Shown here in pieces: positions 1,265 through 34,400 of a stretch of 64,000 nucleotides of DNA. This DNA comes from Mobula hypostoma (taxonomy: Eukaryota). The notes under the pieces are model-generated. The model was not told the DNA's origin. It did not search any database and saw only the letters and a program-made list of their open reading frames with translations. Where the stretch lies: the NCBI RefSeq assembly GCF_963921235.1, contig NC_086108.1, forward strand, positions 61,444,001 to 61,508,000, written 5' to 3'. Positions within the stretch are counted from its first letter, which is position 1. The number at the start of each line of letters is the position of its first letter. The position numbers were made by a program, and so were the translations under genes.

Positions 1265-1757
1265 CGAAGATGGGAGAATTTGTAGATGCTGGAAATCCAA
1301 GCAAACACACACAAAATGCTTGAGGAACTCAGCAGGCCAGGCAGCATCTATGGAAAAGAGTAAACAGTCAACGTTTCGGGCCAAGATCCTTCATCAGGAC
1401 TGAAAAATAAATGATGAGGAGTTAGAGCAAGAAGGTGAGGGGAGGGAAGGAAGTAGTACAAGGTGGTAGGTGATAGGGGAAACCAGGAGGGGGGAGGGGT
1501 GAAGTAAAGAGCTGGGAAGCTGATTGGTGAAAGAGATAAAGGGCTGGAGAAGGGGGAATCTGATAAGAGAGGATAGAAGACCATGGAAGGAAGAAAAGGA
1601 GAAGAGCATCAGAGGGAGGTGGTAAGCAAGTAAGGAGATAATGTGAGAGAGAGAAAAACAGGAATGGGAACGCTGAGGGGTCTCAACCCAAAATGTTGAC
1701 TGGTTACTCTTTTCCATAGATGCTGCATGGCCTGCTGAGTTCCTCCAGCATTTTGTG
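1265..1757. mobile_element. Penelope-like pseudo-LTR foldback insertion
   Basis: Inverted ends (cacaaaatgct..gaggaactcagcaggcca..gcagcatctatggaaaagagt and its reverse complement at 1707-1757). 14-bp TSD aag(g/a)atgataagtt at 1251-1264 and 1758-1771. Confidence 0.85.
1365..1402 (-). ncRNA. minimal type I hammerhead ribozyme motif in PLE pLTR
   Basis: Minus strand reads CAGTC-CTGATGA-A-GGAT-CTTG-GCCC-GAAAC-GTT-GACTG. 5-bp stem I and core boxes intact; one mismatch in stem II. Confidence 0.7.
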
Positions 1758-2278
1758 AAGAATGATAAGTTTGTCCACTATGGGGACAGTTGCAATAACT
1801 GAATGCAGTTCTTCATAGAATTTATCCTTGACATGATTTGGGTTGGTCATGGTTGGGGCATAAACGCTGACGATGGTGACAAGCTTCCTCCCATGCAACA
1901 GGGGGAGTTTCATGGTCATACACACTCTTTGGATGTCCAGCAAGCTTGCCCGGTATCTCCATTTTCTCTGCAAATCTAACCACATCAGTCTTGATTTCCT
2001 CTTTCACTCAAAAGAATATGTATCCCATGCTCCTTTCACAAATGTGGCCCTCTCCTGCAAGCTGGGTGTCACCAGGGCTGTTATATGGAGGTTATAGTAG
2101 GATAACTCTTGCCCTATTAAAGCAGTTCTCCTCTGAGGTTCTGTCAGCATTGACTCTGTCCAACAGTGTATGCACATTCCATGCATTGAGGAATATTCTT
2201 TAATTTTCTCCTCGATGTATTTTGACGGCTGTGATAGGGTTCCCACCAGACCAGCTGCAGTAAACTGACAAGGGAAAG

Positions 2279-2554
2279 AATGGAGCCGGCAATGTTTTGG
2301 GCATTTTTTCTAGACTCTTGCTCATACCGGTGAGCAGTGCATTCCTGACGAGGGCTGCTTAGTCACTCAGAATGGAGCAGGCAATGTTTTGGGCATTTTT
2401 TCTAGACTCTTGCTCATATCGGTGAGCAGTGCATTCCTGACGAGGGCTGCTTAGTCACTCAGAATGGAGCAGGCAATGTTTTGGGCATTTTTTCTAGACT
2501 CTTGCTCATACCGGTGAGCAGTGCATTCCTGACGAGGACTGCTGAGTCACTCAG
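2279..2554. repeat. 92-bp unit tandem triplication within the RTE 5' region
   Basis: aatggagc..ggcaatgttttgggcatttttt..agtcactcag starts at 2279, 2371 and 2463, with only a few substitutions. Confidence 0.95.
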
Positions 2555-3044
2555 GTGGTTGCTGAAGACCACTGCTGCCCTATGTCAGTGGATAACGACC
2601 CTACGATGGGACAGATGGATGACAAGAGTGACTTGGGCAAAGACTTAGCTTAAAGTGAGGAGGAATTATGGGGCGTTGATCTCGTCTGAGCCTTTCTCTA
2701 TCAAGATGAGTCAAGATGACTGGCGATGGAGTCAGATACAGTGGGTGAGCATGATGTCCTTAGTGCCTCATCATGCTTTAAGTGTCCCACAGCTAGTTCC
2801 TGCATGTTGAGTCAAACTAGTGGTTACCTCTGTGCAGTGCCAGGTCCAAACTTCACTGGGTAAACCCTCACTTGGTTTAGCCCACCCATCGCAGCGGTTA
2901 ACCAGGGTGTGACCACTGTCACTAGCAAACAGCTGCTTGGTGCCACAGGTGAGAGCTGAGTGCCAAGAGAGGACAAATGGTGGACAAGCTACTCCCAAGG
3001 AAGCGTGACATTCCTGTCCCTTCAGAGAAAGTACCCCTCCCTGA

Positions 3045-3625
3045 CCTCCATGGTAGAGATATCGAACACTAGTGGTTGTGAGTTTAAGTTAAGAGGAAGA
3101 AATTTTAAAGGGGATCTGAACCATGCTGTAAGACCATACTAACTAATGGCAAAAACAGTTTCAAGATTCAACATTACTTATTGTCATTCTTCTATACAAG
3201 AGTGTGAAGACCAAAATGATTGTTACTCCAGATAAGATGCAGAATAAACAATACACAATAAACATAAAGAACACAATAAAAACACAGTAAATATAATAAT
3301 AAACACAATCCTATAAAATATTATGTAGAAATAACTGATATACACATATGCACAAAAAGTGATGCCAGTTGATGTGTATGCAATGGTGGTGGTGGTTGTG
3401 GGGGGGTGGTTAATGGGCGGAGGTATTGATCAGTCTGATGGCTTGGTGGAAGTAACTATTTTGAAGTCTAGTGGTCCTGGTCTGGATACAATTACTATGA
3501 CACTTTTTAAAGAGTCAAGGTACAGCCTAATGTGGGCAGATGCAATGACAGGAGGTGGGTAAACAGGTCAGCATGGATCTGGTGGGCTGAATGGCCTATT
3601 TCTGGGCTGTAAACTCAATGGTCTG
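3045..3625. mobile_element. CR1 3' fragment (+) interrupted by a Rex1/Babar-type 3' fragment (-, ~3160-3490)
   Basis: CR1-like TSGCEFKLRGRNFKGDL and a gggctgaatggcctatttct tail. The middle part resembles 39915-40270. Confidence 0.55.
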
Positions 3626-4031
3626 TTTACATAAAAAAGACGTTCCAGTGCTCAGACCCGTGGAATGTGTTTTGCTGCAAAAGCCTGACATGAGGATGAT
3701 AGACCAGCAACATGATTCAGTCCGCCACCTGTCTCAAAAATAAAATGCCAAGAAGAAAGAAAGCAAATCCTTTTATTCAAACTCCAGAAAAATAATAAAA
3801 TGCTTGGAATTACTGTATTTCTCAGTTCATCAAATCAGGTAAGAGCTCAATTGTACACCCACAAATATGGGAGTAAATTTATGGGAGTCATGGCACTGGA
3901 GTGACAAAATCAGGATACATGATAACTGTTTCAGCAGCTCACTGAACTGTGATAAACAGGAAGTTTTAAATCGCAGATAAAATTGCCCACGATATGGTAA
4001 CTCATTAGAGGGGTGGGTCAGAATCAAATAC

Positions 4032-4094
4032 CTTCACTGTGGTGGAGCAGGGCTGCTCTTCAGGGAATTGAGTTAAGGTTCGTTTTAGCTCCAT
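4032..4094 (-). CDS. candidate short start-codon exon MELKRTLTQFPEEQPCSTTVK, host gene unidentified
   Basis: ATG at 4094, 21 open codons, phase-0 donor AAG|GTATTT, in non-repetitive sequence. No homologue recognised. Confidence 0.2.
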
Positions 4095-4379
4095 AGAGAC
4101 TATTATTCAGCAACTAAACCTCAGGTAATCTAATGTTCCATGATACTGACAATATGACTCAAAATGTAAAATATTTCATTTCCAGCACAAGAATCCCTCA
4201 TCTTAAGAGAAATAATTCAAAATGAAATGTAATGAAAGAAATGTCAATTCCACTTCACTGCTTACAGTTTGATTCTGCAGCTAGAGGTAAAAGACCAATG
4301 TTTTCACATATGACATCGCTCAGATTCTGTGGTGCGTTAACATATTGAGATTCTGGCTCCAGGGGAAGTTTCCCTGCAG

Positions 4380-8679: not shown

Positions 8680-11420
8680 GCATCAGTTAGTCTCGCGAGA
8701 CCATGGATCTGCGCCTGTAAAGTCTTGCTTCAGTCTGTGTTGGTAGAGCAGCGTCTGTTGTGGCTGTAGAGGCCCACATGGGAGTGACAGTCTCGGCTGC
8801 AGCGACTGCACTTGAAGGCACTGTCCTCCAGTGTTGTCTTGGTGCTGTTTTTCCAACGAGTGCGCTTTTCTTCAGCAGCAAGCCTCAGCTTCTCTTCTCC
8901 TCTTTTTAGACCTCTGCATAGTTCCAGCCTCCAGCGAGAGTGATCGCTTGCGATGTCCTCCAACTTCTCGACATTCATGTTTAGTGACTTTACGTTTCTC
9001 TTGCAGACATCTTTGAAAAGAAGACGGGGCCACCCTTGTGCTTTCTTGCCGGAGGCCAGCTCCACATACAGCAGGTCTTTTGGGATCCTCCTGACTGACA
9101 TGCGGTGTACGTGGCCCAGCCAGTGGAGACAGCGTTATTGGAGCAGAGTGATGAGGCTGGGTATCTGGGCGCGGGCCAGGACCTCATTGTTGGTGACTCG
9201 GTCAGTCTACGTGATGTCCAGGATGCGTCTCAGGCTGCGAAGGTGGAAGGCATTGAGACGCCGCTCTTGTCTGTAGTAGAAGCTCCAGGTCTCGCTGCGG
9301 TAAAGCAGTGTGCTGAGGATGCAGGCCCTGTAGACTGCAACTTTGGTGTGTGTTGTCAGCTTTCTGTTCTCCCAGACTCTCTTTGTCAGCCTGGTGAATG
9401 TTGAGGCTGCTCGTCCGATCCGTCTGTTGATCTCGGGGTCTAGGGAGAGGCTGTCCGTGATGGTGGAGCCAAGGTATGTAAACTCGTGAACTACCTTCAG
9501 CTCGTAGTTGTTGATGGCAATGGCGGGGGTGGGGGGGGGGTGCTCAACGCCTTGGCCCAACACGTTGGTTTTCTTCAGGCTGATGGTCAAGCTGAAGTCC
9601 TGGCAGGCTCTTGAGAAGCTGTCCATGAGGCATTGCAGTTGCTCTTCAGAGTGTGTTGCCAGTGCCGCATCGTCTGTAAACAGCATGTCCCTTAAGAAAA
9701 CTTCACAAACCTTGGTTTTCGCCCTCAGCCGGGACAGTCTGAACAGCCTCCCATCCAATCTGGTGTGGAGGTAGACACCATCAGTTGATGTTCCAAAGGC
9801 GTGCTTCAGCATGACTGCGAAGAAGATGCTGAACAGGGTGGGGGCAAGCACACAACCCTGCTTCACACCGCTGCGGATGTTGAAGGCCTCTGAAAAACAG
9901 CCGTCGAACTGAACGACGCCCTTCATGTCTGTGTGGAATGACTGAACTATCCTGAGGAGCCTTGGGGGAACCCAATCCTGGTGAGGATTTTGAACAGGTC
10001 GTCTCTGCTCACGAGGTCGAAGGCCTTCGTAAGGTCAATGAAAGCAACGTAGAGTGGTTGCCTTTGCTCTCTGCATTTCTCTTGCAGCTGTCGAAAGGAG
10101 AAGATCATGTCGATTGTGAAGCGTTTTGACCCGAAACCGCACTGAGACTCGGGATATATCCTTTCGGCTATTTCCTGCAGTCTGTTCAGGACCACGCGGG
10201 CGAAGACCTTCCCAACGATGCTCAGCAAGGAGATTCCCCTGAAGTTGTTACAGTCGCTTCTGTCCCCTTTGTTCTTATATATGGTGACAATGTTGCAGTC
10301 TCTCATGTCTTGTGGCATTGCTCCCTCTATCCAGCACTGGCACAGTAGTTTGTGCAGGTGGTTTAGCATGACGCTCTTTGTGCATTTATAACCATATAAC
10401 CATATAACAATTACAGCATGGAAACAGGCCATCTCGGCCCTTCTAGTCAATGCCGAACCCTTACTCTCACCTAGTCCCACCGACCTGCACTCGGCCCATA
10501 ACCCTCCATTCCTTTCCTGTCCATATACCTATCCAATTTAACTTTAAACGACAACATCGAACCTGCCTCAACCACTTCTGCTGGAAGCTCGTTCCACAGA
10601 GCTACCACTCTCTGAGTAAAGAAGCTCCCCCTCATGTTACCCCTAAACTTTTGCCCTTTAACTCTCAACTCATGTCCTCTTGTTTGAATCTCCCCCACTC
10701 TCAATGGAAAAAGCCTATCCACGTCAACTCTATCAATCCCCCTCATAATTTTAAACACCTCCATCAAGTCCCCCCTCAACCTTCTATGCTCCAAAAAATA
10801 AAGACCTAACTTGTTCAACCTTTCTCTGTAACTTAGGAGATGAAACCCAGGCAACATTTTAGTAAACCTCCTCTGTACACTCTCAATTTTATTGACATCT
10901 TTCCTATAATTCGGTGACCAGAACTGTACACAATACTCCAAATCTGGCCTTACCTATGCCTTATAGAATTTCAACATTACATCCCAACTCCTATACTCAA
11001 TGCTCTGATTAATAAAAGCCAGCATACCAAAAGCTTTCACCACCACCCTATCCATGTGAGATTCCACCTTTAGGGAACTCTGGTGGAATGCCATCCAATC
11101 CTGGTGCCTTCCCACTGGGCAGGCTGTCGATGGCTTTTTGGCAGCTCTTTGGCAGTCGGCAATGCATCAAGTTCCTCCATGACAGGCAGGTATTCCACGA
11201 CGTCTAGCGTGCTATTCAAGATGCTGTTTTCTCTGGAGAAGAGTTCAGAGTAATGTTCCACCCATCTCTCCATCTGCTTGCCTTTGTCACTGATGGTCTC
11301 GCCTGTTATGGTTTTCAATGGTGCTGTCTTGCTCTGGGTTGGCTCGATGGCTTTCTTGATCTCCTCGTACACTTCACGGATGTTGCATGTGTCAAATGAT
11401 GACTGAGTGCTTTCGCAATG
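8680..11420 (-). mobile_element. RTE-clade LINE, 5'-truncated, RT to 3' end, lightly frameshifted
   Basis: ORFs 11070-11372, 9947-10480, 9207-9926 (GVKQGCVLAPTLF, LFTDDAAL) and 8730-9101 (C-terminal CxxC..H..H). Split by a CR1 insertion. Confidence 0.93.
10388..11075 (-). mobile_element. young CR1 3' fragment inserted in the RTE
   Basis: Uninterrupted ORF 10471-10941 (EYCVQFWSP..FFTQRVVALWNELP); (taaccata)n tail. Confidence 0.93.
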
Positions 11421-12077
11421 GGCAGTAATACCTCAAAAATCAAGGTGAGCCACGGAGTACTCCGATCACACCCCTGATCTGCCTGCCGGCATTCCTGTGG
11501 GGGATTTGAAATGGAATGTCCAAAAATCTCCCACAGGCAACAGCCTACTCGTATGTAGTAAGTCGCTGGCATTGCCATCTCCAAAGGTGCACTTTGGAGG
11601 TATCAATCACATAGAGGGTGTAGCATTCAAACTCTGCACGTTGCTGCCAGGTGTTCATCAGGTTCACAGGTAATCTTCAGAAGGAACTGCTACTGGCTAC
11701 TCTGCAAAGAAAACATGACTACGGACTTTTAGAAAGGCAAATGGGCATAAATATTTCTGCAAGTCCAACAAAAATGTTCTGGCTCATCCACACCTCTGCC
11801 TACTGGCTCTACCACCATTCTATCATGCTAGTTTGGGGTCGGTTTCACTTCCCACAACAAACGGTTGATAAAATTTAGAACTGTTTCAAAGCATCACTGG
11901 TAGCAAAGATTTTATTTTCTTATCCCTTCAAGGGTTGCTGGCTAGACTAACATTTATTGCTTAAATATGTGTCCCTTTGCTAAGCTATTCCACCAAGCAA
12001 CTGTGAATAAACTAGCAACACACATCAAAGTTGCTGGTGAACGCAGCAGGCCAGGCAGCATCTATAGGAAGAGGCGC

Positions 12078-12113
12078 AGTCGACGTTTCAGGCCGAGACC
12101 CTTCGTCAGGACT
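12078..12113 (-). ncRNA. minimal type I hammerhead ribozyme motif
   Basis: AGTC-CTGACGA-A-GGGT-CTCG-GCCT-GAAAC-GTC-GACT; GUC cleavage triplet. Confidence 0.8.
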
Positions 12114-12405
12114 AACTGAAGGAAGAGTGAGTAAGGGATTTGAAAGCTGGAGGAGGAGGGGGAGATGCAAAATGATAGGAGAAGACAGGAGGGGGAGGGA
12201 TGGAGCCAAGAGCTGGACAGGTGATAGGCAGAAGGGGATACGAGAGGATCATGGGACAGGAGGTCCGGGAAGAAAGACGGGGGGAGGTGACCCAGAGGAT
12301 GGGCAAGAGGTATATTCAGAGGGACAGAGGGAGAAAAAGGAGAGTGAGAGAAAGAATGTGTGCATAAAAAAGAGTAACAGATGGGGTACGAGGGGGAGGT
12401 GGGGC

Positions 12406-12867
12406 CTAGCGGAAGTTAGAGAAGTCAATGTTCATGCCATCAGGTTGGAGGCTACCCATACGGAATATAAGGTGTTGTTCCTCCAACCTGAGTGTGGCTT
12501 CATCTTTACAGTAGAGGAGGCCGTGGATAGACATGTCAGAATGGGAATGGGATGTGGAATTAAAATGTGTGGCCACTGGGAGATCCTGCTTTCTCTGGCG
12601 GACAGAGCGTAGATGTTCAGCAAAGCGATCTCCCAGTCTGCGTCGGGTCTCACCAATATATAAAAGGCCACATCGGGAGCACCGGACGCAGTATATCACC
12701 CCAGTCGACTCACAGGTGAAGTGATGCCTCACCTGGAAGGACTGTTTGGGGCCCTGAATGGTGGTAAGGGAGGAAGTGTAAGGGCATGTGTAGCACTTGT
12801 TCCGCTTACACGGATAAGTGCCAGGAGGGAGATCAGTGGGGAGGGATGGGGGGGGACGAATGGACAA
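12406..12867 (-). CDS. PLE GIY-YIG endonuclease domain with upstream Cys-rich linker (fragment of the element ORF)
   Basis: PCKRNKCYTC..GVIYCVRCSRCGLLYIGETRRRLGDRFAEH..VATHF. The upstream PLVLTYHP segment is in another frame. Confidence 0.85.
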   Translation of the reverse strand: MSIRPPPSLPTDLPPGTYPCKRNKCYTCPYTSSLTTIQGPKQSFQVRHHFTCESTGVIYCVRCSRCGLLYIGETRRRLGDRFAEHLRSVRQRKQDLPVATHFNSTSHSHSDMSIHGLLYCKDEATLRLEEQHLIFRMGSLQPDGMNIDFSNFR

Positions 12868-13157
12868 GGGAGTTGTGTAGGGAGCGATCCCTGCGGAATG
12901 CAGGGGGGGTGGAGGGAAAGATATGCTTAGTGGTGGGATTCCGTTGGAGGTGGCGGAAGTTACGGAGAATAATATGTTGGACCCGGAGGCTGGTAGGGTG
13001 GTAGGTGAGGACCAGGGGAACCCTATTCCTAGTGGGGTGGTGGGAGGATGGAGTGAGAGCAGATGTACGTGAAATGGGGGAGATGCGTTTAAGAGCAGAG
13101 TTGATAGTGGAGGAAGGGAAGCCCCTTTCTTTAAAAAATGAATAAACTACATTGTAT

Positions 13158-20840: not shown

Positions 20841-22792
20841 GCAACACACACTGGCAGGAATGCTGGAGGAACTCAGCAGGACCGGCAGCATCTATGGAAA
20901 AGGGTTTAGTTGACATTGCGGGCCGAAACCCTTCATCAGGACTGGAGAAAAACAAAAGCTGAGGAGCCAGAGTCAGAAGGTGGGGGGGGGGATAGTGGGG
21001 GAGGGGAATAAGAAACACAGGGTGATAGGCGATGCCGGGATGTGGTGGGGGAAGAGGGGTGAAGTAAAGAGCTAGGAAGCAGATTGGTGAAAGAAATACA
21101 GAGCTGGAGAAGCGGAAATCTGATACAAGAGGATAGAAGCCCATGGAAGAAAGAAAAGGGGGAGGAGCACCAGAGGGAGGTGATGGGCAGGTATGGAGAT
21201 AAGGTGAGAGAGGGAAATGGGGATGGGGAATGGTGAAGGGGCGGGGGGGGTCATTGCTGGAAGTTTGAGAAATCAGTGTTCAAGCCTTCAGGTTGGAGGC
21301 TGACCAGACAGAATATAAGGTGCTGCTCCTCCATCCTGAGTGTGGCCTCATCATGACAGTACAGGATGCAATGGACTGACATGTCGGAATAGGAATGGGA
21401 AGTGGAATTTAAATGGGTGGCCACTGGGAGATCCCTTCTCTTTCTGGTGGATGGAGCAAAGGTGCTCAGCAAAGCGGTCTCCTAATCTAGGTCAGGTCTC
21501 ACCAATATACAGGAGGCCACATCAGGAGCACTGGATACATTAGATGATCCCAACAGACTCACCTCACCTGGAAGGCGTGCTAGGGGCCCTGGATGGTAGG
21601 GAAGGAGGAGGTGCAGGGGCAGGTGTAGCACTTGTTCTGCTTGCAAGGACAAGAGCCAAGAGGGAGATCAGTGGAGTGTGATGAATGGACAAGGGAGTCG
21701 CGTAGGGAGCGATCTCTGCAGAAAGCAGAAAGTTGGGGGGGGGGGGTGAGGGAAAGATGTGCCTGTGGTGGGATCCCGTTGGAAATGCCAGAAGTTACTG
21801 ACTACCACACTAGCTTCCACATTCAACACATAATTCTCTGCAACTTCCACCATCTCCAACGGGATCCCACCACCAAGCACAGTTTTCTCTCCCCTCCACT
21901 TTCTGCTTTCTGCAGGGATCACTCCCTACATGACTCCCTTGTACATTCATCTCTCCACTGGTCTCCCTCCTGACATTTATCCTTGCAAGTGGAACAAGTG
22001 TGACACCTGCCCCTACACCTTCTCCCTCACTACAATTCAGGGCCCCAAGCAGTCCTTCCAGGTGAAGTGACATTTCACCATTGAGTCTGTTGGGGTCATC
22101 TACCATATCCAGTGCTTACAGTGTGGCCTTCTGTATATCAGTGAGACCCTATGTAAATTGGGTGACTGCTTCAGTGAGCACCTGTGCTCCATCCGCCAGA
22201 AAAAGTAGAATCTCCCAGTGGCCACACATTTTAATTCCACTTCCCATTTCCATTCCGACATGACAGTCCATGGCCTCCTCTATTGTTGTGATGAAGCCAC
22301 ACTCAGGTTAGAGGAGCAACACCTTATATTTGTCTGGTTAGCCTCCAACCTGATGGCATGAACATTGATTTCTCAAACCAGTAATGCCACACACCCCTTC
22401 ACTTTCTCCATTCTCTTTTTCCCTTTCTCACCTTATCTCCTTGCCTGCCCATCACCTCTCTCTGGTGCTCCTTCTTCCTTTTCTTTCTTCCATGGATTTC
22501 TGTCCTCTCCTATCAGATCGCTCTTCTCCAGCCCTGTGTCTCTTTCACCAGCTCTTTACTTCACCCCTCTCCCCACCTTCAGGTTTCACCTTTCACTTGT
22601 GTTTCTTCCTCCCTCACTTTCTTACTCTGACTCATCATCTTTTTCTCTCCAGTCCTGATAGAGGTTCTTGGCCTGAAACATCAACTATACCCTTTTCTAT
22701 AGATGCTGCATGGCCCACTGAGCTCCTCCAGCATTCTGTGCGTGTTGGTTGGGTTTCCAGCATCGACAAATTTTCTCTTGTTTGTGATAGGA
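20841..22792. mobile_element. inverted pair of PLE 3' ends (- arm ~20841-21800, + arm ~21800-22792), degenerate GIY-YIG in both
   Basis: DLPVATHLNS..EEQHLIF on both strands. 10-bp TSD tcaccaccaa at 20831-20840 and 22793-22802. Hammerhead motifs mutated (~20908-20943, ~22651-22686). Confidence 0.9.
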
Positions 22793-22899
22793 TCACCACC
22801 AAAGAGTAGTGTTTGATCATTCAGAGATTAATATCACTAATTATTGTCATCATAAAATGTACAAGAGGAAATTGGTGAAAAGTTACTGCTTAAGAATTG

Positions 22900-23330: not shown

Positions 23331-24660
23331 TGTCCCAAACTCAAAGGATGCCACTAACAGCTTTAATAGAAGTTATTTTAGTTGCGTGATGGAAGAAGAA
23401 ATTCAAACAAGATACTGAAGATTCTAAAACCTAGTCAAGAAGCAATCTCCTGGAGGAACTCAACAGGTTGAGCAGCATCTGTGGTGGGAAAGGAGTTATT
23501 GACATTTTTGGTTAAGACCTTGCATCAGATCCACTTGAGATTCTAACATGCGCTTGATGAAAGTTAATTTACATTTGGACATGATTAAATGGTGGAGAAA
23601 TTTGATGAGGCAGGCTGATGGCACTTCATTAGAGATTTGAAATGCCTGTTGTAGGTAGTGCAATGCCCTAAAGCATTCAAGAGGACCAGGATTACTGCTG
23701 CCTGGTGGACCGTGAGTTCTGTGCTGTCCTAGGTCCTCATTTCCACATATTCCTTTTGTCAGTTGATCAAAGATTGTGCCAGTGCACAGAAGGCAGCAGT
23801 AAATTTCTTCACAATTTGTCTTCCCCAAGATCTGAGAAGTGTTCCATGTTTCCACCTTTTCAATATCAACTTAGAGGGTAGTGTGGTCTCACAGATATTG
23901 AGTGTAAGGCCCATTCTCTTCTTTATGTCATTGAACCTAAATTGACAGTCCTCGCTCTTTCTGCCAATAGAAAACTCTAAAGAAAGCTAAATAAGCCAAG
24001 CCAATTTCTCCACTTAACTAAAATTCTCTGGCTTTGAAAATATTCTCATGAACTTCGATGCACTAGATCAGGTGCTTCCACATCCATCCTGCAACATCAT
24101 GAACAGAACTGTACCCTGTTTTCTTGCTGTTCTTGAACTAGTGTTTTATAGTCTAGTTATGTTCTCCACACTCATGTACAGTACGTTATTCTAAGAAGAA
24201 TAAAGAGGAAAGCAGGTTATCTGAAATTGGAGAATTCTATGCTCATCCATTGGGTTGTGTACTACTGAGGTAGGATTAGATATGAGATACTCCCCCCTAG
24301 TTTGCATTTAGTCTCACCCTGGCAGAGAGGAGCCTGACAACACATAAGTGGCTTTGGGAATGGGGAGAGGAGTTGAAATAGCTGGCAAGTGGGAGCTTAA
24401 GATGACCATGGCTGACAGAGTACATGTTCTTGGCAAATTTGTCCAGGCTACGCTCTCTTCTCACTGCTGCCATCAGGAAGAAGGTACAGGAGCCTCAGGA
24501 CCTGCAGTACCATGGTTAGGAAGAGGTATTACCCCTCAATCATCAGGCTCTTGAACCTGAGGTGATAACTTCACTCACCCATCACTGAACTGTTCCCATA
24601 AGCTATGGACTCAACTTCAAGGATTCCTCATCTTATGTTCTTGGTATTTATTGCTTATTT

Positions 24661-27600
24661 ATCAGAATCAGAATCAGAATCAGGTTTATTATCACCAGCA
24701 TGTGATGTGAAATTTGTTAACTTAGCAACAGCAGTTCAATGCAATACACAATCTAGAAGAGAGAAAAAAATAAAAATAATAAGTACATCAATTACAGTAT
24801 ACAAATATTGAATAGATTTTAAAAAGTGCATAAACAGAAATACTGTATATTAAAAAAAAGTGAGGTAGTGTCCAAAGATTCATTGTCTATTTAGGAATCG
24901 GATCACAGAGGGGAAGAAGCTGTTCCTGAATCGCTGAGTGTGTATCTTCAAGCTTCTGTACTGCCTACCTGATGGTTACAGTGAGAAAAGGGCACGCCCT
25001 GGGTGCTGGAGGTCCTTAATAATGGATGCTGCCTTTCTGAGACACCGCTCCCTGAAGATGTCCTGGGTACTTTGAGGGCTAGTACCCAAGATGGAGCTGA
25101 CTAGATTTACAACCTTCTGCAGCTTCTTTCGGTCCTGTGCAGTAGCCCCTCCATACCAGACAGTGATGCAGCCTGTCAGAATGCTCTCCACGGTACAACT
25201 ATAGAAGTTTTTGAGTGTATTTGTTGACATGCCAAATCTCTTCAAACTCTGAATAAAGTATAGCCGCTGTCCTGCCTTCTTTATAACTGAATCGATATGT
25301 TGGGACCGGGTTAGATCCTCAGAGATCTTGACACCCAGGAACGTAAAACTGCTCTCTCTCTCCACTTCTGATTCCTCTATGAGGATTGGTATGTGTTCCT
25401 TCGTCTTACCCTTCCTGAAGTCCACAATCAGCTCTTCCGTCTTACTGACATTGAGTGCCAGGTTGTTGCTGTGGCACCACTCCACTAGTTGGCATATCTC
25501 ACTCCTGTACGCCCTCTCGTCACCACCTGGGATTCTACCAACAATGGTTGTATTGTCAGCAAATTTATAGATGGTATATGAGCTATGCCTCACCACACAG
25601 TCATATGTATATTGAGAGTAGAGCAGTGGGCTAAACACACACCCCTGAGGTGTGCCAGTGTTGATCATCAGCGAGGAGGATATGTTATCACAAATCCGCA
25701 CAGATTGTGGTCTTCCAGTTAGGAAGTCACGGATCCAATTGCAGGGGAAGGTACAGAGACCCAGGTTCTACAACTTCTCAATCAGGATTGTGGGAATGAT
25801 GGTATTAAATGCTGTGCTATAGTCGATGAACAGCATCCTGACATAGGTATTTGTGTTGTTCAGGTGGTCTGGACAACTGACCACTGTGTGTCCGACAAAG
25901 TGATCAGCAGCACTGGGGCTCCACAGGGGACTGTCTTGTCTCCCTTTCTCTTAACCATTTACACCTCGGACTTCAACTATTGCACAGAGTCTTTCATCTT
26001 CAGAAGTTTTCTGATGACTCTGCCATAGTTGGATGCATCAGCAAGGGAGATGAGGCTGAGTACAGGGCTATGGTAGGAAACTTTGTCACATGGTGTGAGC
26101 AGAATTAGCTGCAGCTTAATGTGAAAAGACTAAGGAGCTGGTGGTAGACCTGAGGAGAGCTAAGGTACCGGTGACCCCTGTTTCCATCCAGGGGGTCAGT
26201 GTGGACATGGTGGAGGATTACAAATACCTGGGGATACTAATTGACAATAAACTGGACTGGTCAAAGAACACTGAGGCTGTCTACAAGAAGGGTCAGAGCC
26301 GTCTCTATTTCCTGAGGAGACTGAGGTCCTTTAACATCTGCCGGACGATGCTGAGGATGTTCTACGAGTCTGTGGTGGCCAGTGCTATCATGTTTGCTGT
26401 TGTGTGCTGGGGCAGCGGGCTGAGGGCAGCACACACCAACAGAATCAACAAACTCATTTGTAAGGCCAGTGATGTTGTGGGGATGGAACTGGACTCTCTG
26501 GCGATGGTGTCTGAAAAGAGGATGCTGTCTAAGTTGCATGCCATCTTGGACAATGTCTCCCATCCATTACATAATGTACTGGTTGGGCACAGGAGTACAT
26601 TCAGCCAGAGACTCATTTCACCGAGATGCAACACAGAGCGTCATAGGAAGTCATTCCTGCCTGTGGCCACCAAACTTTACAACTCCTCTCTTGGAGCGTG
26701 AGACACCCTGATCCAATAGGCTGGTCCTGGACTTATTTCCTGGCATATTTTACATATTACTATTTAACTATTTATGGTTTTATTACTATTTATTATTGGC
26801 GACTATAACAAAAACAAATTTCCCCCGGGATCAATAAAGTATGACTATGACTATGACTATGACTATGACTAAACCCATGTGGAGGGCCATTGAGATTGTG
26901 TCTGCCGTTGACCTATTGTGGCGATAGACCAATTGCAATGGGTCCAGGTCCTTGCTGAGGCAGGAGTTCAGTCTAGTCATGACTAACCTCTCAAAACATT
27001 TCATCACTGTTGATGTGAGTGCTACTGGGTGATAGTCATTAAGGCAGCCCACATTATTCTTCTTAGGCACTGGTATAATTGTTGCCTTTTTGAAGAAAGT
27101 GGGAACTTCTGCCCGTAGCAGTTAGAGGTTGAAAATGTCCTTGAGTATTCCCGCCAGTTGGTTGACACAGGTTTTCAGAGCCTTACCAGGTACTCCATCG
27201 GGACCTTCCGCCTTGCAAGGGTTCACTCTCTTTAAAGACAGCCTAATATCGGCCTCTGAGACAGAGATCACAGGGTCATCAGGTGCAGCAGGGATCTTCA
27301 CAGCTGTAGTTGTGTTCTCCCTTTCAAAGTGTGCATAGAAGGCGTTGAGTTCATCTGGTAGTGAAGCATTGCTGCCTCATGCTACTGGGTTTTGCTTTGT
27401 AGAAGGTAATGTCTTGCAGACCCTGCCAGAGTTGCCGTGCATCTGTTATCGCCTCCAACCTCGTCGTCTTTGAAATAACCCTTTGCAAACCATACCTGGA
27501 TTTCTGGTATAGGCCTGGATCACCAGACTTGAATGCCACAGATCTGGCCTTCAGCAGACGACGTACCTCCTGGTTCATTTGCGGCTTTTGGTCTGGGAAT

Positions 27601-28250
27601 GTACAGTAAGTCTTTGTGGACACATACTCATCCACACAGCTTTTAATGAAGTCGGTAACAACTGCAGCATACTCATCCAGATTCAAAGATGAATCCCGGA
27701 ATACAGTCCAGTCCACTGATTCAAAGCAGTCCTGTAAGCGCTCCTATGCTTCCCTTGTCCATACCTTCTTGGTCCTCACTACTGGTGCTCCAGTCTTCAG
27801 TCCCTGCCTGTACTCAGGGAGCAGAACTACAGCCACATGATCAGACTTCCTGAAGTAAGGGCACGGAATAGTACGGTAGTCATTCTTGATGGTGGTGTAG
27901 CAATGGTCCAGTGTGTTGTTACCTCTGGTATTGCAAGTGATCTGTTTATGGTAATTGCTTAGTGATTTTTTTCAGACTGGCCTGATTAAAATCTCCCAAA
28001 ACGATAGTGAAGGCATTAGGGTGTGCAGTTTCGTGCATGTTGATCCCATTGCTCAGATCATCTAAATCCTGCTTGACTTTGGCCTGAGGTAAACTACTAC
28101 CAAAACGACCCTGGAGAGCTCCCGTGATAGGTAAAAAGGACGGAACTTTACTGCTAGATATTCCAGGTCTGGTGAGCAGAATTGGGACAGCACTGATATG
28201 TTTGTGCACCAAGAAGAGTTGATCATGAGGCATACTCCTCCACCTCTGCT
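24661..28250 (-). mobile_element. Rex1/Babar-clade LINE (APE part, RT, 3' end), split by a + strand copy
   Basis: ORF 24976-25701 [25 protein letters not shown]; ORFs 26831-28328 [26 protein letters not shown]; (atcaga)n tail at 24661. Confidence 0.9.
25871..26870 (+). mobile_element. Rex1/Babar-type LINE 3' kb
   Basis: [25 protein letters not shown] 26141-26701; aataaa followed by a (gactat)n tail. Confidence 0.9.
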
Positions 28251-31200
28251 TTTATTATTATTATTGTTAATATCATTTATTTTTTCTCTTGCTTTTTGTA
28301 TTTGCGAAGTATTTTGTATTTTCCTCACATTTGTTGTTGTCTGCCCTGTTGATGGTGATCTTTCGTTTTATTGTGTTTCTTGTATGTGCCGTGATTGCCC
28401 ACAAGAAAGGGAATCTCAGGGTTGTATATGGTGACACGTACGCACTTTGATCATAAATCTATTTTGAATTTTTTTCCATGTCTGATCTCCTGATGTAGTG
28501 GAGGCCACATTGAGAGCACCAAATGCAATAGTCGACATAGAATGCAGCCCATGTGAATTTTTGCCCTGAAAGGGCTGTTTAAGTCCCTGAACGGTGATGA
28601 GGGAGGGTGTGTAAGGACATTGATACATCTCCTACAATTGCAGAGGAGAGTGCCAGTGGACAGGAAGGGGTGGGTGGAGAGCAACAGTGTACATAAAGAG
28701 AAAAGTCTTAAAGAGGATGGTCCCTTTCAAAAGCAGAAAGGAGTTAGGAGGGGACACTTCCTGAAGTAGGGCTCAGCATAAAACATCAACTGACCTGCTG
28801 AGTTCCTCCAGCATTTTGTATGTGTTACTCTATAGTTAGGCGGGGAGGTGGGACTGGTGGTGAGATTGCGTTGCAGTTTGCAAAAATGCCCAAGAATTAT
28901 GGGCTGTATGCAGCTGCAGGGTGATTGGAACTCTATCATTGTTCCATCTGGGATGAAGTGGGATGACAACAGAAGTATGGGAAATGGTAGAGGGAATTTT
29001 GCAGGGAGAAAGCCTTCTTCAGCATATCCACCATAACCCATGACCTGTTCCACCAAAGAAGGGATTCAGGTACATGAGAACACAATTCTGCCCCAAGTCA
29101 GGCATCATCTTGATTTGACAATAAAACACCTTTCCTTCATTCTGTCTGGAATTAGGTCCAATCTCCCTACCTATTCTCAGCAAGAATGATTGCAATGTTT
29201 CAAGATAGATCACCATTACCTTCTCAATAATAACTGAAGAAGGACAATAATATTATTTTGCTAGGAGAACTCAGACACACTTAGAATTACTTAGAGACCC
29301 CAATCTATTTTATGTGCTCACGTACTCAACATTGACTTGAACCTACAACCTCTTGGCACAGAATGGTACAAGCTGAGAAGTGAAAAGATACTCCTTAAGC
29401 AACAATGTGCTCCCAGCAACATTTCTTCTCACTTCCAGCTGCAGGAGTATTTTGCTTTTGTAGACAATATGGCAGTTCATTTTATTAAAATAAAGGTAAA
29501 TATAATCTGTAATTTGTAATTATTAATTAATTTATGAATTCTTGGTTTTGCATGTTGATGGTAAGTAAAAATCCATTTTGCCCAATTAATTTTTCTCAGA
29601 CCAAAATGTAAATAGAAACCAAGTAAATATCTGACCAAAATAAATCTCTCAAAAGAAAAATGATAACCTTTTTAATTACATGCTATTAATAGAACTGTAT
29701 TGCTCCTATTGAAACTGAGCACAAAAATAGAATATTATTGACTATAATGTGTAGCCAATAGAACATGGTCAATGAAGATTTGTCTGAAATTGACTGCACT
29801 AAAATGCAGTAACTTGCTTCACCCACATTTGGCTTCAAGTGCACTATGGTTACTGTTTGTTCAATGTTCATATTCATCTTGCGAAAGGGTTAGGCTCCTG
29901 TGGTGAGTGCTGGGAGATTTCTAGAATTATCCACATATAGGCCTACCAATTCCGTTATGCTGGCCTACGCACATGACCTTTGTACCAGAAGAAGCCTCAG
30001 GATTGTAAGTGAGTTGAGGTGACTATACTTGCCTTTTATACAGCTTGCCAGTGAAGAGATTTCGATTTTGGGTTGCATCCTCAGTATCAAACCAGGGCTG
30101 CGAACCACAACTGAGACAAGACTAGACCAGACATGCTGCCTATAAATGGAACACTTTAATCCACATTAAAATAATCACCCACACCTCATACCCTGAGGAT
30201 AATGCATAACTTAGGAGAAGGAGCTGTCATCTTCAAGGAATGGGGAAAGGGAGTAGAGATCCATCTGTGCTAGTACTATTTTCTGGCCAAGGTGAAATCT
30301 CTGTGTTAGTAATGATGTGGACAATTACCCACTGCAAAAAAAATTACAGAAATATGTAATTATAAAGCCTGTTTTTTGTCACTGGATAATTTTGAATGAT
30401 AGGTATTAAATTGTCAAAATCCTTGGAAGATACATGCTTGAAGTTGCAACATGACTGTATAAATTCAGATACAATTTTGGAAGAAGTAGAAAGAGAAGGC
30501 ATTTTTTCATGCAGAGGGCAACATGGTTAAATCATGGATCAAAAGTTGTGTTTTGTAAACAGTTTAATGTCATTTAGTTGGAATGGCTGCCCGAGTTCGC
30601 CTTTCAAGCATCTGTGTATCAATTTGCAATCAATTCCAATGAGTTCAAGGAGCTATGTACATAGAGTGGAGCCAGTTTCATAGCATTGAACACTTCGGAA
30701 TAAGGTTCAGCTGTGGTCCTCATTGTAAATTATTACATAGTTAAACTGCAAGCCCGAAATAACCTCCTGTTAGAAATGTTCATATTTGATGCATTTCAAA
30801 ATCATTTTGGTATTGAACAATCATACCCTTTAAAAATATAAGCTCTTAGGCTCCAGTGACCAATATAAGGGATGACCAGGATGGAGGGCTTACCTTCACC
30901 AGAGGGATTGCAATGGTTTAAGGTGAGCTAACCACTTCTTTTTGTAGGGCACGTAGGAATAGGCAATAAGCATTGGCCTCGTCAGTGACGTGCAGATCAT
31001 AGAAAATAGATTTGGGGGGAAATCCCTGTGGAAATGCTACCCCGTTTTAAAATAACGCATCAATTTACCCTTGGATTCACTCCTCAGTGTGTAATATGGC
31101 ACTAAGGTTTGAGAAGAACTCCTCATTGCTACTCAAACCTTACCCTTTCTGAACACACTGTCCTTCACTCCCTCCACACCAATCCCAACCTTACTATCAA

Positions 31201-32086
31201 ACCTGCAGATGAAGAGAATGCTGTTGTAGGATGACGGACTACCTTGCTGAGGCCAGGCGGCATCTCTCAGATACCTCGTCTTACCTACCCCCTGAAAAGG
31301 ACCCCACTCCAGACCATCAAAAAATTGTCTCCAACACCATCACTAACCTTATCAACTCTGGAGCACTCCTGTCCACTGCCACCAAACTCAGAGGTCCCTG
31401 ACCCTACACTGCTTGCTTCTACCTCCAACCCAAGATCCACCAACCTGACCAGCCCATTATCTCTGACTGTTCCTGCCCCACTGAACTCGTGTCTGCATAC
31501 CTTGACTCCATTCTATCCTTCTTGGTTCAGTCCTTTCCTACCTACATCCACAATACTTCAAATGCTCTTGAACTCAACACATTTCGATTCCCTGGCCCTG
31601 ACTGCCTCTTTTTCACCACAGATGTCCAGTGTCTGTATACTGCTATTCCACATCAAGAAGGCATTAAAGCTCTTTGCTTCTTTCTCAAGGAAAGATCCAG
31701 CCAGTTTTCCTCCACCGCCACCCTCCTCCATCTGGTTCTCGTATTCAACAATTTCCCTTCAGTTCCTCCCACTTTCTCCAGGCTCAAGGGGTAGCTGTGG
31801 GCACTTGCATGGACCCCAACAGTGCCTGCATTTTTGCTGGCTACATAGAATAGTCCATGTTCCAAGCCTTCCCTGGTAATGCACCCCAACTCTTCCTGTG
31901 CTAGATTGCCGACTGCACTGATGCTGCTTCATACATTCTTGCTGAGCTTGTCAATTTCATCAACTTTGCCTCCACCTTCCACCTTGACCTTAAATTCACT
32001 TGGTCCATTTCAGACACCTCTCCCCCCTTTCTCGATCTCTCTGTCTCCATCTCTGTAGCCAAACTGTCTACCAACATCTTTTATAA

Positions 32087-32429
32087 GAGAATTCCTAAAG
32101 CATGGTTTCCTGCAAACAATTCTGTAAACAGACATGTTGACCTCAATCCTATCTATGACCAGATGTAAACCAAATTCCAGGCCACAATGCATGAAGTTTG
32201 ACACACAGCCAATCGGCAATGAGATTTCCTCCTCACATCACAAATAAGTTTCTGAAATGACATAAAAGGTTATTTATATCAAACGATGTAAAAAGACAGC
32301 TGAGTAAACAGTTATACAGACCAAGCAGTCAGAGGGCACATCACAATCAACAGCACAATAATGATCTCTCATCACATGATGACAAAACTTTTTCAAGTAA
32401 AATGCCAAGATTGGAGAACAACTCAACCT
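32087..32429 (+). mobile_element. 3' fragment of a different (Poseidon/Penelope-clade-like) PLE
   Basis: Frameshifted REFL(E)AWF..SVNRHVDLNPIY, resembling a GIY-YIG C-terminus. TSD atcttt(t/g)ataa at 32076-32086 and 32430-32440. Confidence 0.55.
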
Positions 32430-33119
32430 ATCTTTGATAAACCTACTGATTCCTTTGTCTATCTTGACTATATGTCTCCTCACCCTGTCTTCTTTAAAAA
32501 ACGCTATTCCCTTTACTTGGTTCTGTCATCTACACCACATCTGTTCCCTGGACGTGGCTTTCCATTCCAGGATATCAGGAATGTCTTCCTTCTTCAAAAA
32601 ACAGGGTTTCCCTTCTTCCACCATTGATACTGCCCTCACCCGCACCTCCTCCATTTCCTGGATATCCACGCTCACCACATTTTCCCACCGTCTTAACAGG
32701 GCTAGAATTCCTCCTGTGCTCACCTACCACCCCTAGAGCCTTCGCATGCAACACATCATTCTCCACAACTTCCGACATCTCGAACGGGATCCTATCGTCA
32801 AAGACAATTTTACCTCCTTCCCACACTCAGCTTTCCGCACGGACTGGTTCCTCCATGATCCCCTTGTCCATTCGTCCCTCCCACCGATCACTTGGCACTT
32901 AGTCCTGCAAGCAACAAAAGTGCTACACCAGCACAAATACCTCCCTTACCTCCATTCAGGACCCTAAACAGTTCTTCCAGGTGAGGGAAAAATTCACCCG
33001 TGAATCTGTTGTGGTCATCTATTGTATCTGGTAAACACAAAATACTCTGCTGGGGTCAAAGCAACACGCACAACACATTGGAGGAACTCAGCAGGTCAGG
33101 CAGCATCCGTGGTAACAAT

Positions 33120-33157
33120 CAGTCAACGTTTCGGGCCGGAACCCTTCGTCAGGACTG
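33120..33157 (-). ncRNA. minimal type I hammerhead ribozyme motif
   Basis: CAGTC-CTGACGA-A-GGGT-TCCG-GCCC-GAAAC-GTT-GACTG; palindromic AACGTT at stem III. Confidence 0.82.
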
Positions 33158-33248
33158 TAGGGGGAAGGGCCAGAGGCCCTATAAAGAAACATACATCAAA
33201 GTTGCTGGTGAACGCAGCAGGCCAAGCAGCATCTCTAGGAAGAGGCGC

Positions 33249-33284
33249 AGTCGACGTTTCAGGCCGAGACCCTTCGTCAGGACT
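33249..33284 (-). ncRNA. minimal type I hammerhead ribozyme motif
   Basis: Identical to 12078-12113. Confidence 0.8.
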
Positions 33285-33598
33285 AACTGAAGGAAGAGTG
33301 AGTAAGGGATTTGAAAGCTGGAGGGGGAGGGGGAGATGCAAAATGATAGGAGAAGACAGGAGGGGGAGGGATAGAGCCGAGAGCTGGACAGGTGATAGGC
33401 AAAAGGGGATACGAGAGGATCATGGGACAGGAGGTCCGGGAAGAAAGACGGGGGGGGGTGACCCAGAGGATGGGCAAGAGGTATATTCAGAGGGACAGAG
33501 GGAGAAAAAGGAGAGTGAGAGAAAGAATGTGTGCATAAAAATGAGTAACAGCTGGGGTACGAGGGGGAGGTGGGGCCTAGCGGAAGTTAGAGAAGTCA

Positions 33599-34072
33599 AT
33601 GTTCATGCCATCAGGTTGGAGGTCCCCCCCATCCCTCCCCACTGATCTCCCTCCTGGCACTTATCCGTGTAAGCGGAACAAGTGCTACACATGCCCTTAC
33701 ACTTCCTCCCTTACCACCATTCAGGGCCCCAAACAGTCCTTCCAGGTGAGGCATCACTTCACCTGTGAGTCGACTGGGGTGATATACTGCGTCCGGTGCT
33801 CCCGATGTGGCCTTTTATATATTGGTGAGACCCGACGCAGACTGGGAGACCGCTTTGCTGAACATCTACGCTCTGTCCGCCAGAGAAAGCAGGATCTCCC
33901 AGTGGCCACACATTTTAATTCCACATCCCATTCCCATTCTGACATGTCTATCCACGGCCTCCTCTACTGTAAAGATGAAGCCACACTCAGGTTGGAGGAA
34001 CAACACCTTATATTCCGTCTGGGTAGCCTCCAACCTGATGGCATGAACATTGACTTCTCTAACTTCCGCTAG
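33599..34072 (+). CDS. PLE GIY-YIG endonuclease domain (true homology starts ~33623)
   Basis: Almost identical to 12406-12867 in translation. The first residues come from the inverted arm. Confidence 0.8.
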   Translation: MFMPSGWRSPPSLPTDLPPGTYPCKRNKCYTCPYTSSLTTIQGPKQSFQVRHHFTCESTGVIYCVRCSRCGLLYIGETRRRLGDRFAEHLRSVRQRKQDLPVATHFNSTSHSHSDMSIHGLLYCKDEATLRLEEQHLIFRLGSLQPDGMNIDFSNFR

Positions 34073-34364
34073 GCCCCACCTCCCCCTCGTACCCCAGCTG
34101 TTACTCATTTTTATGCACACATTCTTTCTCTCACTCTCCTTTTTCTCCCTCTGTCCCTCTGAATATACCTCTTGCCCATCCTCTGGGTCACCCCCCCCCG
34201 TCTTTCTTCCCGGACCTCCTGTCCCATGATCCTCTCGTATCCCCTTTTGCCTATCACCTGTCCAGCTCTCGGCACTATCCCTCCCCCTCCTGTCTTCTCC
34301 TATCATTTTGCATCTCCCCCTCCCCCTCCAGCTTTCAAATCCCTTACTCACTCTTCCTTCAGTT

Positions 34365-34400
34365 AGTCCTGACGAAGGGTCTCGGCCTGAAACGTCGACT
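34365..34400 (+). ncRNA. minimal type I hammerhead ribozyme motif
   Basis: agtc-ctgacga-a-gggt-ctcg-gcct-gaaac-gtc-gact. Confidence 0.82.

Follow-up and report, generated by a model that had tools for sequence, protein, structure and literature searches.

The 64,000-nucleotide stretch of DNA that we analysed (the window) contains genuine sequences of minimal hammerhead ribozymes; they sit in the terminal repeats (pLTRs) of broken Penelope-like elements (PLEs), which probably come from a shark or ray. The best explanation of the whole, which we consider probable, is that these pLTR hammerheads were copied passively, are locked as monomers and would cleave conditionally, in master elements. The PLE pLTR-hammerhead arrangement has been known since 2014; the present finding extends it to a further host group and contributes one variant, the G10.1.U11.1 of a subfamily that is young and abundant, and is of modest practical value.

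Five hammerhead motifs share an intact core

A search for the pattern CTGANGA-N10..22-GAAACGTH gave exactly five matches in the window, and these are its five minimal type I hammerhead motifs, at 1365, 12078, 33120, 33249 and 34365. The initial annotation had placed all five at the correct coordinates and on the correct strands. In dinucleotide shuffles (n = 100) the same pattern was matched 0.01 times on average (maximum 1).

1365..1402, minus strand: minimal hammerhead, older subfamily; A.C mismatch in stem II; GUU site; predicted cut between 1370 and 1369
12077..12114 (first annotated as 12078-12113), minus strand: minimal hammerhead, young subfamily; G10.1.U11.1; GUC site; predicted cut 12082/12081
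33120..33157, minus strand: minimal hammerhead, third subfamily; stem II G-C, G-C, G-C, U.G; GUU site; predicted cut 33125/33124
33248..33285 (first annotated as 33249-33284), minus strand: minimal hammerhead in the short inverted arm of a young insertion
34364..34401 (first annotated as 34365-34400), plus strand: minimal hammerhead in the long arm of the young insertion; predicted cut 34396/34397

Every motif had the core boxes CUGANGA, GAAA and UH with no mismatch at the 14 core positions checked, a 5-bp helix I (the closing helix of type I, its last pair a wobble in the three young motifs), an extra A between 9 and 10.1, and the palindromic ACGU at 15.2-16.2 without helix III. Stem II was clean, canonical and 4 bp long only in 33120-33157. 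The A.C mismatch of 1365-1402 lies at 10.3-11.3, and in motifs 12078, 33249 and 34365 G10.1.U11.1 replaces the conserved G-C, so that the 10.1-11.1 pair is G-C in two of the five motifs, one of them internally mismatched, and G.U in the other three. At 34388, C made up 20, 29, 39 and 77% of depth, a rough measure, in four contig runs. The three young motifs are identical in sequence, their pLTRs are 97.5-99.8% identical, and a single inverted insertion accounts for two of them, with 33249 in one arm and 34365 in the other; the five motifs therefore represent four insertions and three distinct sequences. The description of five intact-looking motifs thus stands for the core, but intact stem II is confined to 33120 and the independence of the five was overstated.

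The pLTRs fall into at least three subfamilies with ~78% identity between them, which together with the core match supports the earlier assignment to minimal type I hammerheads in Penelope-like pLTRs of at least three subfamilies. As for the loop variation noted with that assignment, UCCG alone looks like a true subfamily variant, whereas CUUG versus CUCG is a single CpG-type transition. The decayed copies named earlier, counted as eight, were all present. The copy at ~1675 is truncated besides decayed, starting inside the motif at an inverted junction, and the ~54135 junction likewise falls within the motif. Additional remnants occur at ~18477, ~23500, ~51000 and ~54100, and one at ~28790 retains the downstream block only.

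The motifs resemble the PLE minimal hammerheads of Cervera 2014 (PMC4209133) in type I topology, a helix I of 4-5 bp, the extra base between 9 and 10.1, the palindromic 15.2-16.2, the lack of helix III and the location in the pLTR. They also share the occurrence mostly as single motifs in truncated elements, with opposite-strand pairs a few hundred bp apart. Helix II differs, being 4 bp here and 7-8 bp in S. mansoni, and the young subfamily has G10.1.U11.1 in place of the published G10.1-C11.1 (PMC4209133). The same study reported minimal hammerheads in fish Xena, Poseidon and Neptune elements, and the searched part of its supplement contains no shark or ray term.

The Rfam search suggested in the initial annotation missed the motifs: the covariance models gave no hammerhead family in the window at the gathering threshold or at E<=10. 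A weak MIR842 match at 21753-21886 proved to be the inverted junction of a PLE insertion. Viral contigs gave no match by DNA pattern or by protein, and metagenome contigs gave one matching locus, L001, an unrelated PLE junction with the same core in which stem I pair 2.4-1.4 is switched from A-U to U-A. We consider it highly improbable that a repeat family merely came to resemble a hammerhead by chance. The silence of Rfam would fit such a resemblance, as would the homology of the five matches, which makes them roughly one observation; yet the core, the extra base after A9, the palindromic 15.2-16.2, the strand and the location in the pLTR agree with the PLE motif as published, as does G10.1-C11.1 in the older subfamilies, and the core recurs at L001.

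The host element encodes a GIY-YIG endonuclease

Along the element the order is RT, Cys linker, GIY-YIG, stop, a ~300-nt pyrimidine-rich pLTR, a hammerhead on the same strand and a conserved downstream block. The GIY-YIG ORF stops ~300 nt upstream, on the same strand, of motifs 12078 and 34365 (also 33249), which supports the earlier placement of the motifs in Penelope-like pLTRs and sets them sense to the ORF; the 33120 motif likewise lies ~300 nt past a GIY-YIG stop once a nested insertion is set aside. PF01541 was found in two of the three scanned proteins, one above the cut-off and the other 0.1 bit below it. With full-length relatives as queries, tblastn mapped RT and endonuclease pieces in order. 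Relatives of the GIY-YIG and PLE proteins showed 66-80% identity, the best belonging to a ray and a shark. A search for relatives of the endonuclease among solved structures gave none.

The window protein and its relatives contain a C-x4-C-x2-C linker. A CX2-5CxxC linker between RT and endonuclease is given in PMC8557442 as a Neptune feature shared with Nematis. The family is an endonuclease-positive PLE, putatively of Neptune type as judged by its Cys linker. The window holds no full-length element or pLTR-ORF tandem, so the structure of the master element is one that we infer. Comparison of 136 of the 232 frames of at least 70 aa with Pfam, a search for host genes that short exons would escape, returned retroelement-type domains only.

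Insertions end at two positions past the predicted cut site

The insertions and related features outside the 31-36 kb region were as follows.

1265..1761, both strands: inverted pLTR-only insertion; 10-bp target-site duplication (TSD) at 1255-1264 and 1762-1771
12015..13138, minus strand: young PLE, 5'-truncated, not inverted; end +67; 11-bp TSD at 12004-12014 and 13139-13149
20841..22792, both strands: older inverted insertion; decayed motifs 20907-20944 (minus, end +71) and 22650-22687 (plus, end +110); 10-bp TSD
38354..38391, plus strand: decayed motif of a separate pLTR fragment
38538..39181, both strands: older inverted insertion; decayed motifs 38598-38635 (minus, end +65) and 39050-39087 (plus, end +99); 11-bp TSD
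54030..54224, both strands: small inverted insertion; junction inside the motif (~54125-54140); minus arm tailed, plus arm short; TSD not clear

In 1265..1761 both the 1365 motif and the tail sit on the minus arm, which ends at +105 from the cut site, and the plus arm starts inside a motif (~1675) and ends at +64; this pLTR-only fragment is homologous to ORF-linked copies. The PLE at 12015..13138 comprises the end of the RT thumb, the Cys linker, GIY-YIG (with a frameshift at ~12850) and the pLTR.

A three-level PLE nest occupies 31-36 kb.

31324..33029, plus strand: oldest PLE of the nest, decayed; RT to the start of GIY-YIG, whose reading resumes at 35579 past the second TSD copy
33030..35568, minus strand: 5'-truncated PLE owning the 33120 motif; tailed end +95; 10-bp TSD at 33020-33029 and 35569-35578
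33189..34497, both strands: young inverted insertion; 14-bp TSD at 33175-33188 and 34498-34511
33626..34072, plus strand: C-x4-C-x2-C linker and end of GIY-YIG endonuclease coding with stop codon; PF01541, E 5e-5, above cut-off
34415..34460, plus strand: conserved non-coding block 3' of the ribozyme
34461..34497, plus strand: 'tail', a 34-37 bp extension on the long arm only

The young insertion splits the PLE at 33030..35568 into an ORF part (~35570-34733) and a pLTR that runs from 34730 to 34512 and continues at 33174-33030. Its own arms are 33189-33622 (minus, end +64) and 33624-34497 (plus, end +101), and its 14-bp TSD ends 17 bp upstream of the 33120 motif. The nest thus accounts for the presence of two motifs (33248-33285 and 33120) 128 nt apart on one strand, the former upstream. 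Nested insertions (two of the seven examined) are too few to indicate a preference for PLE-into-PLE targeting.

Exact TSDs of 10-14 bp flanked six of the seven insertions examined, and all five inverted insertions had one tailed arm and one short arm. Insertion ends clustered at two places past the predicted cut site, +64..71 or +95..110 nt, each inverted insertion having one end of each kind. This anatomy of 10-14 bp TSDs, inverted arms and a tail on one arm is textbook PLE. Corresponding features are described for endonuclease-positive PLEs of Neptune/Nematis type by Craig et al. 2021 (PMC8557442) and Arkhipova et al. 2013 (PMC3846280): GIY-YIG at the C-terminus, a linker of the form CX2-5CxxC, truncation at the 5' end, an inverted pLTR, a TSD of ~10 bp, a tail of 30-40 bp on one of the arms, and insertion of PLEs into PLEs. 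All copies span the scissile bond, which means that the template was uncut or re-ligated at that hammerhead.

In the anole PLE PAc (Poseidon_Ac; Frangieh et al. 2024, PMC11167929), RT begins at two internal sites, which define the tail. By analogy, the endonuclease may nick both strands, with each nick priming cDNA at one of two internal RNA start sites. The likeness extends to two end positions ~30-40 nt apart downstream of the hammerhead, to extension on both strands, which fits the inverted arms, and to unprocessed RNA as template. PAc belongs to the Poseidon clade and the window family to another, and the results on protein assistance and two start sites come from PAc (PMC11167929). Moreover, the PAc ORF begins at stem II, whereas our own reading of the alignment shows no frame 3' of the motif that is conserved between the subfamilies. 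[quoted passage not shown] The window motifs are probably minimal type I hammerheads of endonuclease-positive PLE pLTRs that were passively copied into dead, 5'-truncated insertions.

Single motifs are predicted to fold into rods that hide the core

Monomers were predicted to form a rod pairing G5-A6-N7-G8 with C15.2-G16.2-U16.1-H17. The probabilities of these core-hiding pairs were 0.82-0.99 in the young and 33120 motifs and 0.5-0.6 in the 1365 motif. By computation, a 4-bp stem III from the ACGU palindrome is possible solely between two motifs, and in homodimers the double-hammerhead fold was 6-11 kcal/mol worse than two rods by nearest-neighbour energies, which ignore core tertiary contacts. 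No copy lies in a direct pLTR tandem, three of the five motifs (1365, 12078 and 34365) have no same-strand partner within 3.9 kb, and the sole close pair on one strand reflects nesting of one subfamily within another rather than tandem repetition of a unit. The predicted rods, the three partnerless motifs and the lack of G10.1-C11.1 in the young subfamily speak against the earlier statement that the young copies can self-cleave; judged from these models, unaided self-cleavage of the window copies is unlikely.

Published systems show a range of activity. The S. mansoni motif did not cleave as a single copy, and its dimers and trimers cleaved at a low level (PMC4209133). The anole PLE hammerhead cleaved only with the PLE protein and was dispensable for insertion in vitro (PMC11167929). 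Among nine Xenopus retrozyme dimers, one cleaved strongly and eight did not cleave (bioRxiv 10.64898/2026.07.22.740005, which covers one chondrichthyan genome). We regard it as improbable that young genomic copies self-cleave unaided on transcription, for which the best case is the accidental tandem of 33248-33285 and 33120-33157 acting as a hetero-double-hammerhead. Every core base is intact, the tandem motifs share ACGU and have cross-compatible stem I arms with all pairs legal in the drawn double fold, and both the low-level schistosome cleavage and the single active Xenopus dimer give precedents. However, the double fold of the tandem, when imposed as a constraint, lay 17.5 kcal/mol above the fold of minimum energy. 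In addition, G10.1.U11.1 is present in the young subfamily, the three motifs outside the tandem lack a same-strand neighbour within 3.9 kb, and the other eight Xenopus dimers were inactive.

We favor instead weak and conditional cleavage, which would take place in tandem transcripts of intact master elements, probably with the element's protein, and might serve to trim or circularise precursor RNA. PLEs retain a nearly inactive hammerhead, and the young subfamily described here, which has sharp ends and represents vertebrates of a second PLE clade, offers substrates for studying protein-assisted cleavage and two-site priming outside the anole element.

Animal non-LTR retrozymes (PMC7229834; bioRxiv 10.64898/2026.07.22.740005) also have type I hammerheads related to those of PLE pLTRs. 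They are head-to-tail tandems of non-coding units, whereas the window copies are dispersed or inverted and several are joined to ORF ends. Two or more consecutive tandem units with complete hammerheads, by which retrozymes are recognised, did not occur in the window.

A possible splice site in stem I

We also weighed whether, in this lineage, the motif owes its retention mainly to something other than catalysis, serving as a protein-binding fold or as a 3' splice site with its AG in the 5' arm of stem I, splicing of the pLTR rewriting stem I. YAG occupies stem I positions 2.5-2.3 in all five intact copies, although stem I pairing requires the AG regardless. The tract before the AG was T-richer in all seven copies examined (T 0.45-0.55 versus 0.33-0.41 upstream), but the entire pLTR is pyrimidine-rich, and total Y near the AG was not above upstream in three of the seven and exceeded it by 0.03-0.06 in two more. 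CTRAC-like words lie ~20-30 nt upstream in several old copies. A G|GTAAT stands at the ORF stop in the 33030 element and, among the loose ends listed, in loose-end consensuses of three of four runs; the young subfamily, however, has no GT at its ORF end. In D. virilis, the Penelope intron end maps to the helix I 5' end (PMC4209133). A role in splicing would not explain why the subfamilies have retained the catalytic boxes in the face of CpG decay, and a mainly non-catalytic motif is in our view improbable.

Somewhat less remote, and still unlikely, is a combined reading for this cartilaginous-fish family of Neptune type, in which the part of the pLTR that lies between the ORF stop (G|GTAAT) and the AG of stem I would be a spliceosomal intron that has been retained. 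Splicing would replace the 5' arm of stem I and so switch the ribozyme. A switch of this sort has been proposed for the Penelope of Drosophila virilis; here it would operate in a different clade and in a vertebrate. The one-short/one-long rule would then record ordered twin priming from two start sites on ribozyme-intact unspliced RNA. If this lead is true, splice-gated ribozymes would be a general PLE feature. In four runs of contigs of uncertain kind, no clean joint from ORF end to stem I AG was present among the 15 joints listed (of which there are 470 more). Two joints in run X5 end at 34365, the letters between being not known.

Decay after insertion and conservation of the downstream block

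Most variation among the window copies is decay after insertion. Contrary to what the initial annotation looked for in the stems, the covariation score of 13 window copies (11 distinct) was not above that of shuffles (0.190 versus 0.204), in a test of low power; one two-sided compensatory change was seen, in the distant L001. Among six older copies with a complete 5' half, one had an intact core, and 13 of 84 core sites were changed, so that one intact copy in six is about the expectation under neutral decay. Selection would have acted on the master lineage and not on the window copies. Host domestication of single copies was rejected, as intactness tracks youth. Diverged copies in the contig runs parted from the reference precisely at the stem I boundaries, after 34401 in three of four runs and before 34365 in one, among the 24 loose ends listed of ~2400.

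Among old copies, the downstream block at 34415..34460 was better kept than the ribozyme core, and the short insertion ends fall at its 3' edge. A conserved hairpin 3' of the motif was considered but could not be substantiated: with 12 copies RNAalifold predicted no structure and with eight it gave -1.3 kcal/mol, a pairing of our own scored below shuffles, and single-copy z-scores ranged from -0.35 to -2.9. In each of the four contig runs, summed depth, which is no copy number, was high at the ORF and at the motif but low in the interior of the pLTR.

Five minimal hammerheads with an unchanged core

All five minimal hammerheads reported in the initial annotation were present at 1365-1402(-), 12078-12113(-), 33120-33157(-), 33249-33284(-) and 34365-34400(+). 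A descriptor combining both core boxes with the ACGU-H junction matched these five motifs only in the window (mean of 0.01 in 100 shuffles). The core was unchanged at all 14 positions checked (CUGANGA, GAAA and UH boxes) in 5/5 motifs, and stem I contained 5 pairs in every one. The 4-bp stem II attributed to all of them was intact at 33120-33157 and not at the other four: there is an A.C mismatch at 1365, and G10.1.U11.1 in all three young copies (12078, 33249 and 34365). The Rfam check that had been proposed detected none of the five. The young motifs are identical in sequence, with pairwise pLTR (pseudo-LTR) identities of 97.5, 97.7 and 99.8%. Numbering of hammerhead positions follows convention here, as do the consensus words for splice sites, save for positions named in papers.

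By the sequence features tested, the motifs would work like, and belong with, the minimal hammerheads of Penelope-like elements (PLEs) from 2014; G10.1-C11.1 was the sole tested feature missing in the young subfamily. They do not have the tandem arrangement of retrozymes. A mostly open-access literature, including the main text of a preprint that covers one chondrichthyan genome (bioRxiv 10.64898/2026.07.22.740005), gave no entry specifically on PLE hammerheads of sharks or rays.

Carrier element and anatomy of the insertions

On the strand of the 12078 and 34365 motifs, a frame whose last domain is GIY-YIG ends ~300 nt before each motif. PF01541 was matched in 2/3 proteins scanned with Pfam, and N-terminal of the domain there is a C-x4-C-x2-C linker, by which the available text of PMC8557442 recognises the Neptune and Nematis clades. 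Of 11 longer protein relatives, the best were one in Hypanus sabinus, at 80%, and one in Rhincodon typus, at 66%, so a ray or shark is the probable host. No full-length element was found within the 64-kb window. In the 136/232 window frames scanned with Pfam, the remaining matches were to retroelement-type domains only, and there was no host-gene domain. Other LINE-type fragments, at 1-759, 8730-11430, 24976-27970, 56850-59240 and 60662-61270, gave matches to RVT_1, endonuclease and ALKBH8_N.

Exact target-site duplications (TSDs) of 10, 11, 10, 14 and 11 bp surround five insertions, and a sixth, of 10 bp, flanks the element owning the 33120 motif; a seventh insertion, at 54030-54224, showed no clear TSD. 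Five insertions are inverted with their 3' ends facing outward, and 5/5 have one short and one tailed arm (arm lengths were measured in four and judged from the alignment in the fifth). Short ends lie +64, +64, +65, +67 and +71 nt from the predicted cut site and long ends +95, +99, +101, +105 and +110 nt. From the insertion structure, the five motifs therefore represent four insertions. A tail on one inverted pLTR has been described (PMC3846280, PMC8557442) and, in the accessible part of PMC11167929, tied to two internal RT start sites, with both-strand extension demonstrated.

Three of the elements form a nest:

31324-33029, resuming at 35579, + strand: oldest PLE, decayed, broken within its GIY-YIG codons
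33030-35568, - strand: middle PLE, the element that breaks those codons
33189-34497, inverted: youngest, an inverted insertion 17-30 bp upstream of the middle PLE's own hammerhead

The nest as a whole spans 31324-35790, with an exact TSD around each inner insertion. Nested insertion left 33248-33285 and 33120-33157 as same-strand neighbours 128 nt apart, the sole close same-strand pair among the five motifs; for the other three, the nearest same-strand copy is 3,990 to 10,712 nt away.

At 2/5 inverted junctions (54120-54145 and 1665-1680) the breakpoint is within the hammerhead. One arm of the insertion at 54 kb starts no more than a few bases from the predicted cut, where a cleaved template would place it, at an ambiguous boundary seen once (n = 1). 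Among contigs of other runs aligned to the window, one from run X5 switches strand at 34366/34408. Another, from run X21 and a single row of low depth, joins 34395 to 34365, a step back of ~31 nt within the motif that would place two hammerheads in direct tandem.

Predicted folding and cleavage

In the best predicted monomer fold of each motif, G5-A6-N7-G8 paired with C15.2-G16.2-U16.1-H17, and this pairing hides the core. Homodimers and the natural tandem both admit a double-hammerhead fold on paper; its computed energy was 6-11 kcal/mol worse than two rods for the homodimers and 17.5 kcal/mol above the best fold for the natural tandem. Because the computed energies leave out tertiary contacts, the predicted folds show a handicap to cleavage, not an impossibility. 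Published assays, as far as the available texts go, agree with this predicted handicap: the single minimal motif of S. mansoni did not cleave and its dimers cleaved weakly (PMC4209133), cleavage of the anole motif required the protein of the element (PMC11167929), and 1/9 Xenopus dimers cleaved (bioRxiv 10.64898/2026.07.22.740005). The anole study also reports that insertion was still seen with core mutants and that no RNA-seq ends fell at the cut site (PMC11167929). In every complete-motif copy here the scissile bond is flanked by sequence on both sides; both sides were copied, and therefore the RNA template was uncut or re-ligated there.

Selection on the motif and the downstream block

The motif is probably under selection in the master lineage. 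It is common to three subfamilies, which are about 78% alike around it. In the contigs of other runs, among the rows listed (24 of about 2,400), diverged copies departed from the young reference exactly at the stem I end, 34401, in 3/4 runs and rejoined it at a downstream block; in one run, diverged copies entered at 34365. An unrelated metagenome contig (L001:735-769(-)) has this minimal core too, with 6 bp in stem II, a 3-nt loop and stem I changed on both sides of the helix. It lies where one frame stops and a PLE-like one begins, which we read as a PLE-like junction. Stem pairing among the 13 window copies was 79% vs 13-42% in slid controls. Covariation in these copies was not above shuffles (153/500 reached the observed pairing and 336/500 the observed score), which counts against selection in the master lineage.

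Single genomic copies carry the motif without selection. Across the six older copies whose 5' half is complete, 13/84 core sites were changed, 4 of them at the CpG of ACGU and 3 at G8. The core was intact in 1/6, the neutral-decay expectation, and therefore we see no selection on single copies.

The block 18-50 nt 3' of the cut site was better kept than the core in old copies (6% per site in 9 copies, a figure biased low by the anchoring of the block). It may be a protein-binding or RT-start signal. No consensus hairpin in the block passed tests; long hairpins were predicted in single copies. The sequence at 34415-34497 and its homologous blocks contain two TGCTG and two CAGCA words, one CAGCA inside the tail. 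Very old remnants of further subfamilies, at 50900-51030(-), 23400-23533(-), 18470-18560(+) and ~28790-28830(+), kept the downstream block and mostly lost the hammerhead.

Candidate splice sites and a neighbouring repeat

A YAG lies within the 5' arm of stem I after a T-rich tract (34340-34368, and equivalent positions of older copies), and older subfamilies have a donor-like G/GTAAT at the ORF stop (e.g. near 34733(-)). The arrangement recalls D. virilis Penelope, in which helix I marks where an intron ends (available text of PMC4209133). Judged from their sequence, the two are doubtful candidates for splice sites. The whole pLTR is pyrimidine-rich, not just the part near the YAG, and the young subfamily is without the GT at the ORF stop. 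One protein (P0001) continues where the ORF usually ends, with unrelated residues from there on; a gene model that used the donor could explain this.

At 37240-38230, a C/T-rich tandem low-complexity repeat of about 1 kb adjoins the pLTR fragment of the 38354 motif upstream and may be expanded pLTR sequence.
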